DNA of 64,000 nucleotides from positions 720-64,719 of the forward strand of contig DASCPX010000147.1 of NCBI GenBank assembly GCA_036012755.1, in the 5' to 3' direction. The notes below the pieces were generated by a model. That model made no database searches, was not told where the DNA came from, and saw only the letters and a list, made by a program, of their open reading frames with translations. Positions 14,029 through 19,781 of this stretch are shown here, in pieces. Every line of letters begins with the position of its first letter. Within the stretch, counting starts at the first letter, position 1. The DNA comes from Myxococcota bacterium. GTDB taxonomy: Bacteria > Myxococcota_A > UBA796 > CAJQPC01. Position numbers and translations under genes: made by a program.

Positions 14029-14083
14029 GCTCGGCACAATAGCCGTCTTGCCGTACTGACGAGGGTGTATGCTCGTACGTACC

Positions 14084-14311
14084 ATGCGCAAGACACTCAC
14101 CCGGACGGGAAACAGCCTCGCCGTCGTGCTCGACAAGAAGCTGCTGGCGGCAACAGGCATCGACGCGGACACAGAGATCGAGATCTCGACCGACGGGGAT
14201 GTCATCGTCATCACGCCAGTCCGGTCGGGCGAGCGGACCCGCGAGCTCCGCGAGGTCATGGAGGACCTGAACAGCCGCTACGCCGGAGCGTTCAAGCGCC
14301 TTGCCGAGTGA
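14084..14311 (+). CDS. AbrB/MazE-family antitoxin
   Basis: KTLTRTGNSLAVVL swapped-hairpin motif; C-terminus YAGAFKRLAE; directly upstream of a Doc toxin. Confidence 0.9.
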   Translation: MRKTLTRTGNSLAVVLDKKLLAATGIDADTEIEISTDGDVIVITPVRSGERTRELREVMEDLNSRYAGAFKRLAE

Positions 14312-14696
14312 GCCTCGCTTTCTGAAGCTCGACGAGGTCCTCGCCATCCATGCCCAGCAGATCGAGCTCTATGGCGGGAGCCCGGGCTTGCGGGACGGAG
14401 GGCTCCTCGAGTCCGCACTCGCGATGCCCGCCGCCTCCTTCGGCGGAGCCTACCTCCACGGCACCCTGCACGAGATGGCGGCGGCCTACCTCTTCCACCT
14501 GGCGAGCAACCACCCCTTCGTGGATGGCATCAAGCGCGTCGGGTTGGCGGCTGCCGGTGCATTCCTCGGCATGAACGGGATGCGGCTGGTCGCGTCAGAG
14601 GACCAGGTGGTCGACATCACGCTCGGCGTCGCGGCGGGTACGGCGACCAAGGCCGACGTCGCGGTCTTCCTCCAGGAGTTCACCGAGCCTCGGTGA
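14301..14696 (+). CDS. doc: Fic/Doc family (death-on-curing) toxin with variant motif
   Basis: GLRDGGLLESALAMP and HPFVDGIKR (canonical HPFxDGNKR). Confidence 0.88.
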   Translation: MPSEPRFLKLDEVLAIHAQQIELYGGSPGLRDGGLLESALAMPAASFGGAYLHGTLHEMAAAYLFHLASNHPFVDGIKRVGLAAAGAFLGMNGMRLVASEDQVVDITLGVAAGTATKADVAVFLQEFTEPR

Positions 14697-15476
14697 TCAG
14701 TGCTCGTGCCCCTCGGCGGCTTCGCCGAAGATCCGGCCGATGCCCAGGCCAACGGCCCAGTCGTAGTTGCCGACGATCGGGACGCGCGCGTCCGCGGAGA
14801 GGGCCCAGCGCTCGTTGGGAGCCCAGACGAAGCCGCCCACCGCGGCCACCTCGGCGAACTGGCCCGGGGCTGCGGACCCGGCGGCGCCGATCCAGGGCAC
14901 GCCGTCGACGCGGCCGAGGCGCCGAGCTCCCTTCAGCGTGACCGTGCCGTAGGGTCTCTGCCTCGTGCCGTCGAGGCCGTCGTAGAGGGACACCCGGCCC
15001 TGTGCGGATGCCGCGAGGAGCCAGGCCGCGCCCCACACGACATCGGCGGAGAGCCAGGGATCGGCGCTCCCGGTGGACAGGGGGGTGAAGGCGAAGCCCT
15101 GGTTGGCGCTTCCGCTGGGAAGGGAGATCCCTGGCGCCACTCGCAGGGCCAGGTTCGGCTTGTCGATCACGCGGGCCTGGGCCGAGATCACGGTGTCCCG
15201 TGTGTAGAGCGCCGGCGCCCGTCGATAGGCCGCCGTCGTCAGGGTCACCGACCAGCGGTCGGACCAGGGCGCCTCGAAGCCGAGGGCCAGCTGTTCGCTA
15301 CGGCCTTGATCGTCCCCGGCGACGAGTCCGGCGGTGCGAACCACGTACTGCCCGGGCTCCATGCCGCCGTCGTACTCAGACCTGCCGACCGGCAGGGTGC
15401 TGTCCGCTCACAAGCTTCACTGGGCTTCGGCCGGTCCGGCCGCCAGCATCCAAAACAGCATCGTCATCGCACTCAT
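14697..15476 (-). CDS. putative selenoprotein: exported beta-barrel 'transporter'-like protein with N-terminal UxxU motif
   Basis: GGAGG RBS, signal peptide ending AEA|Q, then in-frame TGA-AGC-TTG-TGA (15417-15419 and 15408-15410), continuous with the 221 aa ORF; GISLPSG...TGSADP and alternating beta-strands; C-terminal GHEH. Confidence 0.7.
15377..15406 (-). promoter_or_regulatory. candidate bacterial SECIS element
   Basis: mRNA CGGAC-AGCACC-CUGCC-GGUC-GGCAG-GUCUG; the GGUC apical loop begins 17 nt after the second UGA. Confidence 0.65.
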
Positions 15477-15546
15477 CCTGCCTCCGATAGCCGCTTCCGC
15501 GTCCTGACTATCGCGTGCCCCGGACCATGCCGTCGCAGAATCGTCT

Positions 15547-15570
15547 TGATATTGACTTTCAGTTGCAACT
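15547..15570. promoter_or_regulatory. Fur/Zur-family-like operator plus adjacent palindrome
   Basis: TGATATTGACTTTCA (12/15 to the 7-1-7 box TGATAATGATTATCA) abutting the palindrome AGTTGCAACT, in an AT-rich divergent intergenic region. Confidence 0.55.
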
Positions 15571-15612
15571 AATTGATTTGACTACACTTTTTTATGGCCA
15601 TAGCCTCGACGG

Positions 15613-16455
15613 GTGTCTACTGAACGAGCCCTCGCTGTCGCGCTTTCACTGAACGCGGCCTTCCTCGTCGTGGAGGCCGCGGCGGGCTTCATCACAGGGT
15701 CGCTGGCGCTGTTGTCCGATGCCGCCCACATGCTCGGGGACGTTGCAGCCCTCGGACTCGCCCTGGCCGCTGCGATCGTCGCGAAGAAGGCCGGTGGCCT
15801 CGCGCAGACCTACGGACTTCGCCGGGTCGAGGTCCTCGGGGCCTTCGTCAACGGCCTGCTCCTGCTCGCGGCCGCTGGCTGGATCGTGCTCGAGGCCATC
15901 GAGCGCCTCGTCACCGGCATCCCAGAGGTGGCGGGGCTCCCGATCCTCGTGGTCGGCGTCGCGGGACTGGTCGTGAACCTCGGCAGCGCGGCGGTGCTCA
16001 TGAAGCGGGAGGGGCTCAACGTGCGCGCGGCCATGCTGCACATGCTCACGGATGCCCTCGGCTCCATCGGCGCCATCGTCGCGGCGCTGGCGGTCCTGCG
16101 CGGCTACCAGTTCGCGGACGCAGCTGTCTCCTTGCTGATCGCGGTGCTGGTGGTAGCGGCGACCTGGCGCTTGTTGGCCGACTCGACCCGCATCCTCCTC
16201 CAGTTCGCACCCGCGGGCACCGACGTCGACGCGATCCGAGCGGACCTCGAGGACCTGCCCGGGGTGGCCGGTCTGCACGACTTCCACGTCTGGACCTTGG
16301 ACGGCACCGAGCCCATCGTGAGCGTCCACGTGGTCGTCGAGCCAGGCACGCACCCCTACGAGCTCCACGCCGCGGCGCTCGATCTGCTCGCGCAGGACCA
16401 CTCCATCTGCCAGGCGACCGTGCAGGTGGAGACCTCCGCTCAGTCCGTGTCGTAG
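15613..16455 (+). CDS. cation diffusion facilitator (CzcD/ZitB-like Zn/Co/Cd exporter)
   Basis: SLALLSDAAHMLGD, TYGLRRVEVLGA, LNVRAAMLHMLTDALGS, HDFHVW. Confidence 0.93.
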   Translation: MSTERALAVALSLNAAFLVVEAAAGFITGSLALLSDAAHMLGDVAALGLALAAAIVAKKAGGLAQTYGLRRVEVLGAFVNGLLLLAAAGWIVLEAIERLVTGIPEVAGLPILVVGVAGLVVNLGSAAVLMKREGLNVRAAMLHMLTDALGSIGAIVAALAVLRGYQFADAAVSLLIAVLVVAATWRLLADSTRILLQFAPAGTDVDAIRADLEDLPGVAGLHDFHVWTLDGTEPIVSVHVVVEPGTHPYELHAAALDLLAQDHSICQATVQVETSAQSVS

Positions 16456-19400
16456 AGCGCCTCGATCGAGGCCACCACTTCTGCGTAGACCACCGGATCG
16501 ATCTCGCTCAAGGGGATGCCCTCGAGGCGGTAGCCGGGCTTGTCCGAGTGCACGCCTCGCACGAAGGTCAGCTCGCGAATCTCCTGCTGCTGCTCGAAGT
16601 CGTAGCCCATGCCGAGACCGGGCTGGAAGTCGAGGACCGCCGTGACGTCGCTGTTGCGGAAGGGCTTCACCATCCACAGGACCACGCCGCCGTCCTGGGG
16701 GGTGCCTCGGATCCAGCGTTTCCTCGCCATGAACCCGCGCAGGCGGCCCGTCCCGACGTCCTTTGCGATCCAGTTGTCCAGGCTCCGCACCGTGCCATCC
16801 ACAGGCGCCAGCGCCGGGCGGTCCAGCTGCGGGAAGGGAGGCAGCATCTCGTAGTCCGCGAGGACCTGGGCCCAGGCCTCTGTGTCGGTCATGCGCAGGG
16901 GATGGGCCAGGCGGATCTCCGCGTCGATCTCGACGGTCTCGTCCTCGAGGTCCGCGAAGCTGCCGTCCTCTGCCACCCGGAAGGCCCGGGTGCCGTCCCA
17001 CCAGAGCAGCTGCTCTGCCAGGCGCCGGTTCACGGGGTTGGTGAAGACCTCGCGCCAGGCCTCGACGGACCAGCTGCGTCCGTCGATCATCGCGGATTCC
17101 AAGCGCTCGATGGCTGCCTTCACACCAGTCTTCAGCTGCTTCTTCAGGGCCGAGAGCTCCTTGCGCCTGGCCTTGTCGTCCTCTGTCTTCGCCTTGGGCA
17201 GGGCCCGACGCTTCGCGCCGTCCAGGAAGATCGAGAGCGACAGATCGTTCGCCAGCCGCAGGGTGTAGGTCCGCTCCGCGTAGACGAAGTCCCGCTGTCC
17301 TCGAGCGTCGAGACCGAAGTCCGAGAGCACCCGCTCGGCGAGCTCGTCGCGGCTCAGCCCGAGCTTCTTCGCCGCCTCGTCCAGGGCCAGGCCCGCGCGC
17401 TCCCGAAGGCCGTTGCTCCGGGCGCGGCGTGCCCAGTGATCCACCCACTGCAGCGCCGCGGATGACCCATGCCGTGCGAGCGCCTCGACCTTGGCGAAGG
17501 CCTCGAGGTGGTCGCCGGAGCGCGCCTTGTCGTCCAGACTGCGGCCGTAGTCAGCGAGCTCGGACTCCTGTGCGAAGACGCCGGTCAGCTGCACGACCCA
17601 GCCATAGCGGTGCTCCTTTGTCCCCGCGGTCCGCTCCCCGAGGCCGGCCCTGAGCGCCGAGGCGCTGTCAGGGTCGAAGAGCGGGCGCAGGCTCGAGAGG
17701 TCCTCTCGATCGGCCAGCGCCGAGATCAGGCCGCGGAGGGCCCTTGGCGACACCGGGGTGCCATCCGACAACGACAAGGACAGCCCCTCCAGGGAGACCG
17801 GCGCCTCGGCCACCCGCCTGGCGAAGCGCGACTCCAGCTCGGCGAGGTCATCCAGCCCGAGCTCGGACAGGGGGCGCTCGCCAGCGGCGAGGCAGGCCTC
17901 GAGCACGCCCGCGAGCACCTCGCGGACCTTCTTGCTCTTCTCCTTGGCCATCGCGGCCTCGATGACCTCTACGTGCTCCGGGCCGGCGACGGCGAGGTAG
18001 AGCTTCGCTGCCTCGATGCGCACGTCGGCCTTCTTCGCGGACAGGTGCTCCGGCGCGAGCACGCCCAGCTCCCCCAGGACCTTCGGGGCCATGGACTTGG
18101 CTATGCCTTGGCTCGACACCATCAGGTATTTCATGAAGTCGATGGCGCCGGGCCAGCCCGTGCGGCCGTACCACCACCACAAGTCCGCGAGCCCCCAGTC
18201 CTCCATCGTCGCGAGCATGACCTGGACCGCCGCTTCCGCCCCCGGACCGAGCGCGCTGAGCACGTCCATGGCCCGCTGGCGTCCGTCCTCGTTCCAGCCC
18301 GCCTCCTCGAACATCCGCGCGCCGGCGGTGACCTCGTCGGCGAGGGGGAGGGGCGCGTCCGCCTCGGCTGACAACAGCGGCTTCAGGGCGGCGAGGACCT
18401 CTGCCGCCTTCTCCTTGGCGGCCGTGCGCTCGGCGAGCGCCTTGCCGCGGGCCGTGACCGGGATCGCGGCCAGGGCACGGGCCGCGCCAAGGCGGCTCCC
18501 CTTCTTGCGAGAGGCCAGCGCTCGGTCGATCACCTCGATGGCGCCTGGGTCCGAGAGGCCATGGACGGCGGCCTCGCGCACCCCCGAGTGGCTGTCGGCG
18601 AGTAGCTCGGCCAGCTTCGGCCAGGCCAGCTCGCCGCCAGCGGAGGCCAGGCCCCAGGCCACGATGTCCCGCTGGGGGAACTTCGCGATGTCCTGCTCCG
18701 AGAGCGTCGGCGCTGCAGCCCGCGGCAGCTTCTTGAAGGCTTCCAGCGCCCTGGAGCGCAGGTAGGGGTCGCCGCGGGGCCAGGAGCGAATGGCGTCGCA
18801 GGCCCTCTCGAGTGTCAGCGGCAAGGGGAGCTCGGGCAGCCAGCTCCAGATGGCTCCGTCACCGTAGCCGCGCTTGTCCGCCTTGAAGCACGGGGCGATG
18901 TGTCGCTCGATGAACTCGGGGCCAAAGACCTGCCACGCGCGGGCGTAGAGCGGGGCGAACTTCGCGTTGCAGGGCTTCGAGAGCGACTCGACGAAGAGGT
19001 CCGTATCCGCCAGTCCCGCCTTCGCCAGCACGATGGCCGCCATGTGGAGGCCGAAGCGCTGGGGCTGGCTGCGATCGGCCTGGACCAGCGCAGTCGCCAG
19101 GCCCTCGGGCACCGGGTCCAGCTTCTCCGCGACCGCCAGGACCGTGGGCCCGTAGTCGAGGTTCAGCACGACACGGGCAAGCTCCTCCGGGCTGGCGTGC
19201 GGCAGGAGGCGGCCGACGACCTTCTCGGACCAGATCGAGCACCCGGGCTCCCCGGCCGCCTTCGCGAGCGCCTTGCCCCCGACGGCGCCCGGCCACACCG
19301 CGTCGAAGTCCTCGAGGCTCCAGTTCGTGCCCTCGGCCTCGAGGCTCGCGATCAGCTCGAGGGTCTCGGCTCCCAGCTGACCTGGTTCGAGCGCTCCGTG

Positions 19401-19781
19401 GACCGCGAGCCGGAAGCCCAGGCGGCTCTTCATGGGCTCGGGCAGGGTCGGCCACAGCGCGACGAGGGGGTCTCGGTCCTCGAGGGCCTTCACCATCTTC
19501 TTGAAGAAGCGGGAGCGGGAGTTGGTCAGCCCCGCCATGTTCGGCTGCTTCGAGATCCGCTCCAGCAAAGAGGCCAGGTCCGCCCCGGAGAACGGGGCGC
19601 CCGCGGCGTCGTCCATGGTCGACCAGAACCAGCTCCCGGTGCTGCAGTCGAGGGTCCCGGCCCGATCCAGCTCCCACAGCAGGGCCCCCGCGGGCTTTTC
19701 CCCCAGGAGCGACTTCAGGCGGTCGCAGATGTCGTAGGCGTCTGTGTACTTCTGGAGGATTGTGTCGATTCGCGGGTCCAT
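16440..19781 (-). CDS. DUF4132 domain protein with HEAT-like repeats (YehI/MolR-like)
   Basis: LGLSRDELAERVLSDFGLD, RLESAMIDGRSW, IRLAHP, PFPQLDR, PLSEIDPVVYAE. Confidence 0.88.
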   Translation of the reverse strand: MDPRIDTILQKYTDAYDICDRLKSLLGEKPAGALLWELDRAGTLDCSTGSWFWSTMDDAAGAPFSGADLASLLERISKQPNMAGLTNSRSRFFKKMVKALEDRDPLVALWPTLPEPMKSRLGFRLAVHGALEPGQLGAETLELIASLEAEGTNWSLEDFDAVWPGAVGGKALAKAAGEPGCSIWSEKVVGRLLPHASPEELARVVLNLDYGPTVLAVAEKLDPVPEGLATALVQADRSQPQRFGLHMAAIVLAKAGLADTDLFVESLSKPCNAKFAPLYARAWQVFGPEFIERHIAPCFKADKRGYGDGAIWSWLPELPLPLTLERACDAIRSWPRGDPYLRSRALEAFKKLPRAAAPTLSEQDIAKFPQRDIVAWGLASAGGELAWPKLAELLADSHSGVREAAVHGLSDPGAIEVIDRALASRKKGSRLGAARALAAIPVTARGKALAERTAAKEKAAEVLAALKPLLSAEADAPLPLADEVTAGARMFEEAGWNEDGRQRAMDVLSALGPGAEAAVQVMLATMEDWGLADLWWWYGRTGWPGAIDFMKYLMVSSQGIAKSMAPKVLGELGVLAPEHLSAKKADVRIEAAKLYLAVAGPEHVEVIEAAMAKEKSKKVREVLAGVLEACLAAGERPLSELGLDDLAELESRFARRVAEAPVSLEGLSLSLSDGTPVSPRALRGLISALADREDLSSLRPLFDPDSASALRAGLGERTAGTKEHRYGWVVQLTGVFAQESELADYGRSLDDKARSGDHLEAFAKVEALARHGSSAALQWVDHWARRARSNGLRERAGLALDEAAKKLGLSRDELAERVLSDFGLDARGQRDFVYAERTYTLRLANDLSLSIFLDGAKRRALPKAKTEDDKARRKELSALKKQLKTGVKAAIERLESAMIDGRSWSVEAWREVFTNPVNRRLAEQLLWWDGTRAFRVAEDGSFADLEDETVEIDAEIRLAHPLRMTDTEAWAQVLADYEMLPPFPQLDRPALAPVDGTVRSLDNWIAKDVGTGRLRGFMARKRWIRGTPQDGGVVLWMVKPFRNSDVTAVLDFQPGLGMGYDFEQQQEIRELTFVRGVHSDKPGYRLEGIPLSEIDPVVYAEVVASIEALYDTD

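Follow-up and report, generated by a model that had tools for sequence, protein, structure and literature searches.

Two in-frame UGA codons behind the signal peptide of a putative outer-membrane barrel protein: a candidate selenoprotein family in uncultured Myxococcota

A review of 2026 lists 119 prokaryotic families of proteins containing selenocysteine (Sec; U in motifs) (PMC13188914, Table 1). In that table, U-x-x-U is given only for a Prx-like thiol:disulfide oxidoreductase (PF00578), the metal-binding protein NF041115, and an FmdB-family protein, and outer-membrane barrels are represented only by the GSU2204 family of the MtrB/PioB type (NF041027) and an FCYXU-type TonB-dependent receptor (NF049945). 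The statement of an earlier note on the DNA analyzed here, that U-x-x-U is known mainly from SelL, was therefore too narrow for prokaryotes. The solved COG4313 channel Pput2725 is described as a 12-stranded barrel, with its first ~14 residues folded inward from the periplasmic side to occupy the lumen (PMC4493636). The subject of this study is a gene on the reverse strand of a 64,000-nucleotide stretch (contig DASCPX010000147.1 of the Myxococcota assembly GCA_036012755.1; referred to as the window). Its frame contains two TGA codons, and the gene most likely encodes an unannotated, exported barrel protein with two Sec residues directly after the signal peptide (referred to as the barrel gene).

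Reading frame and conservation of the two TGA codons

The frame runs from MSAMTMLFWMLAAGPAEAQ through TGA1, Ser, Leu, and TGA2 into ADSTLPVGRSEYDGG and M39, the start of the open reading frame (ORF) found by standard calling (coordinates in Table 1). Direct reading agreed exactly with what the earlier note had reported: a frame extending upstream of the 221-aa ORF to an ATG preceded by GGAGG, the order Q-TGA-S-L-TGA, and a GHEH end. G-rich motifs were also found upstream of the start in several homologs. The N-terminal segment resembles a signal peptide, and cleavage of the precursor probably falls before Q19; a hydrophobic core followed by P-A-[QEY]-A was common to the N-termini of homologs, and pairwise differences by codon position in this segment were 0.50/0.32/0.58 among distinct homologous stretches. 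At the other end of the protein, His-rich tails were present in most homologs: GDGHDH, HHAGDGHAH, HHHGDGHKH, and EDEDEHH.

When the read-through protein was searched in 61 related genomes, homologs with 30-55 % identity were detected in 16 genomes. Exactly two in-frame TGAs were carried by 16 of the 19 matches, and the remaining three fail to cover both Sec positions: two stop at contig ends, and one is the downstream half of a frameshifted copy in genome G002. All 16 gene copies with their N-terminus on the contig had U-x-x-U, within a common pattern: P-A-[QEY]-A-[QGS] follows a hydrophobic segment and precedes U-x-x-U, after which come four variable residues and L-P-V-G-R-[STN]-[ED]-[YF]-D. 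When one genome from each of 185,579 species was scanned, 25 loci were obtained, all of them in metagenome-assembled genomes and mostly labelled Myxococcota, Myxococcales, or Deltaproteobacteria; both TGAs were present in 24, and the 25th was truncated at the end of its contig. An evenly drawn sample of the phylum (301 genomes) gave strong matches in 17 genomes, all from the window's own order (families f1, f3, and f5), and 17 of the 19 strong matches had two TGAs, the other two being cut by contig ends.

These searches combined gave 41 loci, which were reduced to 28 distinct sequences, and both TGAs, the two-codon gap between them, and a 12-nt spacer to the hairpin described below were present in all 28. 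Between TGA2 and the first downstream Met, the protein was conserved with synonymous change (S/T-E/D-Y/F-D; codon-position differences of 0.28/0.34/0.58), and protein-level conservation was found on both the upstream and downstream sides of the TGAs, as is expected of an in-frame UGA in bacterial selenoprotein genes. Judged from these alignments, the pattern of TGAs is far beyond chance.

A profile of 14 read-through homologs was compared with 1.84 billion representative proteins, and gave 86 hits, including 58 at E <= 1e-30. Since every one of these 58 strong hits starts at or after profile position 39 (range 39 to 122), they represent truncated gene-calling products. None of the 58 strong hits is a full-length Cys form, and no close Cys form was found among them or among the 25 loci of the species scan. 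A word-indexed search returned five unnamed truncated proteins, and the read-through protein matched no NCBIfam family at E <= 1. In run X3, an independent assembly made in a different study, one contig of 2476 nt with a depth of ~11 spans positions 14600-15600 and differs from the window at two positions, 15331 and 15442, both outside the TGAs; the coverage of runs X7-X9 does not include the TGA positions. Several expectations of the earlier note were thus borne out: gene callers truncate the gene, both TGAs are also found in the independent assembly, and homologs have TGA at both positions and distant homologs Cys at both, with no Trp and no unconserved residues.

Some copies and records call for separate comment. 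The G002 copy (L017 and L029, same genus; also L061) is divided between two frames, one with residues 1-112 and both TGAs and the other with residues 129-259; either the copy is a pseudogene with a frameshift or the assembly is wrong here. G040 (L022, L030) and G014 (L023, L031) each contain two copies or overlapping contig-end fragments, which point to recent duplication or split assemblies. Among the gene-bearing records L051, L055, L056, L058, L062-L064, L067, L068, L070, and L072, several are titled Enterobacterales, Enterobacteriaceae, Rhodobacterales, Alphaproteobacteria, or Cognaticolwellia; these labels look unreliable because the copies group with Myxococcota-labelled ones on the tree.

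Putative SECIS hairpin and selenocysteine machinery

A hairpin with the consensus C-U-S-C-C G-G-U-C G-G-S-A-G begins exactly 12 nt after TGA2 in every copy, and is a putative selenocysteine insertion sequence (SECIS). In the 28 distinct sequences, the five stem pairs were either invariant or covarying: the S-S pair is C-G in 20, G-C in 8, and broken in none. The covariation score was not reached by any of 500 column shuffles, and the pairing collapsed when the partner strand was slid. A maximum-likelihood tree built from 26 gene products required four changes in the state of this pair, and well-supported branches forced at least two of them; therefore, at least two independent switches occurred, and the pair state is not one inherited event. 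Synonymous sites were frozen at the hairpin: Pro is CCG, Val is GTC, and Arg is AGR in 28 of 28 sequences each, compared with 73/219, 137/345, and 12/253, respectively, elsewhere in 14 of these genes.

In section 5 of PMC13188914, the bacterial SECIS (bSECIS) model has a loop of 3-9 nt with G in its two leading positions, a stem of 4-16 bp, a UGA-to-loop distance of 16-37 nt, and a minimum free energy (MFE) of -7.5 kcal/mol or lower. The corresponding values of the present hairpin were within these ranges: a GGUC loop, a stem of 5-6 bp, distances of 17 nt (UGA2) and 26 nt (UGA1), and a consensus energy of -8.85 kcal/mol. An Rfam scan of window positions 15300-15500 gave no SECIS family, and only four weak matches to unrelated families.

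The genome of the window (6.7 Mb, 68 % G+C, 250 contigs) contains selA, selB (291 bits over the curated cut-off), selD with one in-frame TGA, and tRNA-SeC. SelA was found in 58 of the 61 related genomes, and its co-occurrence with the barrel gene is uninformative for this reason. Besides selD, four Sec genes were found in the same genome: FdhA with T-U-H-A-P (TIGR01591, 796 bits), a UshA-like selenoprotein with C-G-U (NF041198, 292 bits), a protein of 641 aa whose C-terminal domain is ResA/TlpA-like (W-U-P-V-C) and whose UGA-to-loop distance is 17 nt, and a 241-aa thioredoxin (Trx)-like W-U-G-V-C protein with no NCBIfam match. The lineage encodes exported Trx-like selenoproteins. In all five genes (L075 (C59), L077 (C135), L078 (C137), L074 (C27), and L010 (C70) of G000), a GGUC-type loop starts 17-20 nt downstream of the UGA, so that the hairpin of the barrel gene has the local loop sequence and, for UGA2, the local distance. 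The scan for Sec genes gave 72 candidates in this genome; among the seven with GGTC-type loops, to which examination was confined, four look real, and L073, L076, and L079 look like false positives. Two further points of the earlier note were substantiated by these results: the SECIS-like hairpin that it had seen after the two stops, through covariation, frozen synonymous sites, and the fit to the bSECIS model, and the machinery for Sec that it had suggested looking for, through selA, selB, selD, and tRNA-Sec, all of which were found.

Protein family and possible roles of the U-x-x-U pair

Weak hits of the Sec-family profile (E 1e-7 to 1e-3) formed a small unnamed family, in which a signal peptide is followed by C-A-[AG]-C-S-N-P-N-L-P-x-G. 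Its members (P0076, P0092, P0093, P0101-P0103, and relatives) are "hypothetical protein" in the sources. When the profiles of the Sec family (A2) and the CxxC family (A3) were compared by hhalign, they aligned over ~250 columns (99.5 %, E 3.4e-23), and the two U residues fell on the two C residues of CxxC. At the mature N-terminus, the CxxC family has C-x-x-C-x4-L-P-x-G where the window has U-x-x-U-x4-L-P-V-G, and the motifs G-L-[ST]-L-P-x-G, [ST]-G-[ST]-x-D-P, and R-x-P-L-Y are common to both; the CxxC family differs in having Cys instead of Sec and inserted segments with invariant His (I-H-H-R-D-E and H-Q-H; six invariant His). On the basis of this alignment, the barrel family is the Sec counterpart of a distant, uncharacterized CxxC family. 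Homologs with Cys at the Sec positions are distant ones only, and a search of the window's genome with the A3 profile matched solely the Sec gene itself, with no CxxC member. Within the CxxC family, P0078, P0087, P0095, and P0096 are fused at the C-terminus to a long His/Asp-rich linker and a thioredoxin domain (WC[HV]PC), P0078 has C-C rather than C-x-x-C ahead of the L-P-x-G-R motif, and some members end in a C-terminal Phe.

Pfam Phenol_MetA_deg (PF13557), which we take to correspond to COG4313, was matched by 6 of the 14 homologs at E <= 0.1 (best E 3.9e-6), and a relative, P0084, passes the cut-off. A crude periodicity scan gave 10 amphipathic segments, two of which are long enough for two strands; this is compatible with ~12 strands, and suggestive only. 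The barrel and the N-terminal plug of the window protein are predicted features.

We give a probability of roughly 0.8 to the explanation as a whole, in which the gene encodes a di-Sec barrel protein. Its core appears highly probable from the comparisons: a precursor with two Sec residues, decoding of both UGAs through SelB and a SECIS, and a relationship to the CxxC family as its Sec counterpart. The 259-residue precursor would consist of a short Sec-type (secretory) signal peptide, a mature N-terminus with Q-U-S-L-U, a ~230-residue Phenol_MetA_deg (COG4313-like) barrel, and a His/acid-rich tail. Both UGAs would be decoded as selenocysteine by SelB and Sec-tRNA under a single SECIS hairpin (CUSCC-GGUC-GGSAG). 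Signal peptidase I would then cut after A-x-A, leaving [Q/G/S]-U-x-x-U as the mature N-terminus, and in a barrel with an even number of strands, this N-terminus would share the periplasmic side with the His-rich C-terminal tail. Concerning function, we tentatively propose that the N-terminal segment faces the periplasm or lies in the lumen, like that of the solved COG4313 channel, and that the two selenols, perhaps together with the His-rich tail, bind a soft metal of the Cu, Zn, Cd, or Hg class. Metal bound at U-x-x-U might be moved across, or kept at, the outer membrane with the help of the barrel; alternatively to a metal site, the Sec pair might cycle between the diselenol and selenenylselenide forms. 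The role suggested in the earlier note, metal capture or redox gating by a plug, is equally tentative.

Several observations weigh against this interpretation. The assignment of residues 20 and 23 as Sec is based on sequence comparison. The hairpin region of the window, when folded by itself, was no better than shuffles (z = -0.21), and the case for the hairpin is therefore a comparative one. A single hairpin would have to serve two UGAs 9 nt apart, and the distance from UGA1 to the loop, 26 nt, is outside the 17-20 nt measured in this genome for the five genuine Sec genes examined, while still within the published window of 16-37 nt. G018 holds the barrel gene, yet gave no SelA match, and the G002 copy is frameshifted. 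The signal peptide in the window is short and has no positively charged n-region. The window protein scored 17.0-17.1 bits (E 0.006) with Phenol_MetA_deg, below the gathering cut-off of 22 bits, which limits this link to the superfamily level, and sequence searches with the A2 profile, the A3 profile, and P0084 gave no usable PDB relative. The invariant His motifs of the CxxC family are gaps or non-His in the Sec family. No partner gene was conserved beyond the genus among 17 loci, and since the neighbors are not conserved, the gene context gives no functional support.

Among the alternatives, the best surviving one keeps the same selenoprotein and makes U-x-x-U a redox centre (selenenylselenide/diselenol) rather than a metal site, exchanging with periplasmic thioredoxin-like partners, for example, in channel gating or substrate reduction. 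We regard this as rather unlikely. It would agree with the fusion of the Cys relatives P0078, P0087, P0095, and P0096 to WCHPC thioredoxin domains, the exported Trx-like selenoproteins of this lineage, and the redox nature of most known Sec families with UxxC or CxxU (PMC13188914, section 7). The same fusions, however, have long His/Asp-rich linkers, which, like the six invariant His of the Cys family, point to metal binding; the Sec family has His-rich tails, and no thioredoxin-like gene was a conserved neighbor at the 17 loci. We rank the metal site somewhat above the redox centre because tails and linkers are rich in His, the Cys family has invariant His, and a cation diffusion facilitator (CDF) gene neighbors the barrel gene in the genus.

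A stronger version of the di-Sec reading is unlikelier still: the protein might be an obligate di-Sec outer-membrane channel, in which one SECIS drives two insertions three codons apart and a Se-Se / 2 Se- pair, placed in the lumen at the extreme N-terminus, gates or selects soft metal or chalcogen species. If this were true, no sulfur version would have been kept anywhere in the lineage, so that the chemistry would truly need selenium.

The two explanations without Sec appear very improbable. If the TGAs were genuine stops, the product would be the 221-aa ORF from M39, or the gene would be decaying, and the upstream frame would be untranslated or a separate 19-residue leader peptide; every gene caller outputs a product of the 221-aa type and the G002 copy is frameshifted, but 28 distinct sequences keep the frame through both TGAs, and the stretch from TGA2 to the first downstream Met is conserved as protein. 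Moreover, there is no conservation of the downstream start (database forms begin at profile positions 39 to 122), a barrel lacking a signal peptide would be unable to get to the outer membrane, and the hairpin covaries at the distance of a SECIS. Alternatively, the UGAs might be translated as Trp or Cys, whether through suppressor or near-cognate decoding or because TGA is reassigned in general. The inserted residue is indeed not decidable from sequence alone, but the genetic code is not reassigned, because TGA ends most copies of the barrel gene and is absent inside SelA, SelB, and the other matched genes; moreover, the Sec machinery in the genome is complete, the hairpin fits the bSECIS model and the genome's own Sec genes, and Cys, with which Sec is usually paired, occupies the homologous positions.

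Neighboring genes and comparison with known systems

An AT-richer spacer of 136 nt separates the barrel gene from the divergent CDF gene. This gene was found next to the barrel gene in same-genus genomes only: adjacent in L018 and ~3.4 kb away in L045. In the survey of the neighborhood, ORFs were clustered around the 17 loci and 20 neighbors were scanned with Pfam; in the loci of lower G+C content (L039, L044, and L047), a filter on G+C at third codon positions (GC3) removed the majority of ORFs. The neighbors were varied, and included a chaperonin, a pseudouridine synthase, T2SS-F, ABC transporters, a trypsin-like protease, and a protein with a MopE motif. At L028 and L044 (G036), the in-frame translation directly upstream looks thioredoxin/redoxin-like and exported (...WFNADCPF... 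ending ...YGCSVKY; raw translation only). In the intergenic region between the barrel and CDF genes, a self-complementary 10-mer, AGTTGCAACT, was read by eye at 15561-15570 and may be due to chance; a palindrome and repeat scan of this region gave nothing at its thresholds, and a promoter and terminator scan gave 0 sites. On the other side of the barrel gene, the MazE/AbrB-type and Fic/Doc-family ORFs form, by their domains, a toxin-antitoxin pair.

Table 1. Positions in the window of the barrel gene, its elements, and adjacent features
Feature	Position	Strand	Remarks
Full read-through gene, putative di-Sec barrel precursor	14697..15476	-	259 codons and stop TGA 14697-14699; homologs cover residues 1-259 with 2 TGA inside
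GGAGG, Shine-Dalgarno-like motif	15481..15485	-	4 nt before ATG 15476-15474; direct reading
Signal-peptide-like segment MSAMTMLFWMLAAGPAEA	15423..15476	-	hydrophobic core and A-x-A cleavage motif
TGA1, codon 20, putatively read as Sec	15417..15419	-	26 nt before hairpin loop; TGA in 28/28 distinct stretches; aligns with first Cys of distant CxxC
TGA2, codon 23, putatively read as Sec	15408..15410	-	17 nt before hairpin loop; TGA in 28/28 distinct stretches; aligns with second Cys of distant CxxC
Putative SECIS hairpin	15381..15396	-	stem C15396-C15391 with G15386-G15381 (CCUGCC/GGCAGG), loop GGUC 15390-15387; overlaps L-P-V-G-R codons
221-aa ORF of standard calling; barrel body and C-terminal tail	14697..15362	-	starts at M39; identical to database protein P0002
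Acidic/His-containing C-terminal tail GEAAEGHEH	14700..14726	-	after last predicted strand (...GLGIGRIF)
CDF gene, divergent neighbor	15613..16455	+	Pfam Cation_efflux 3e-39, ZT_dimer 1e-10
MazE/AbrB-type antitoxin ORF	14069-14311	+	Pfam MazE_antitoxin 1.8e-6; overlaps Fic/Doc ORF
Fic/Doc-family ORF	14301-14696	+	Pfam Fic 5e-15; end 14696 abuts convergent barrel gene stop 14697-14699
1113-aa ORF with DUF4132 domain	16440-19781	-	1.6e-36; overlaps CDF gene 3' end by few bases, opposite strand

The family is absent from the list of 119 families (PMC13188914, Table 1), and the curated models NF041115, NF041027, NF049945, TIGR02605, and others did not match the read-through protein. No description was found in the literature on UxxU, outer-membrane-barrel, Myxococcota, or Phenol_MetA_deg selenoproteins; the supplements of BSepDB and deep-Sep could list it. 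From these comparisons, the barrel gene most likely defines a new selenoprotein family in uncultured marine Myxococcota, in which the decoding mechanism is known and the protein setting is new. It would add to the prokaryotic selenoproteome a well-supported family that annotation pipelines have missed, the public copies found being all truncated and unnamed. Three traits are unusual: the presence of two Sec residues, the lack of close Cys orthologs in our searches, and an outer-membrane barrel with Sec directly after the signal peptide. The segment of ~60 nt may also serve as a compact natural system for studying the decoding of two UGA codons, 9 nt apart, by one bacterial SECIS, and the family suggests that uncultured marine Myxococcota, which are abundant, carry out selenium chemistry at their cell surface.

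In comparison with known UxxU selenoproteins, the barrel family shares two Sec residues in U-x-x-U spacing and predicted bacterial Sec decoding, and NF041115 is read as a metal site. The known proteins are, however, soluble and of the thioredoxin-fold, HMA, or zinc-ribbon type, and show no homology to the barrel family (0 NCBIfam matches; Pfam gives Phenol_MetA_deg only). The GSU2204 family and the FCYXU receptor provide a precedent for Sec in outer-membrane beta-barrels, whereas both have a single Sec and are large, unrelated barrels. COG4313/Phenol_MetA_deg channels, which are implicated in the uptake of hydrophobic molecules, resemble the window protein in their similar size, an N-terminal segment before the first strand, and weak repeated Pfam matches; to our knowledge, neither Sec nor a CxxC motif is known in them. 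The SECIS of E. coli fdhF, with its loop of the G-G-U-C type, is similar in its short GC-rich stem and an apical loop G-G-U-C ~11-12 nt after the UGA, whereas in the barrel gene two UGAs precede one hairpin and no bulged U is evident.

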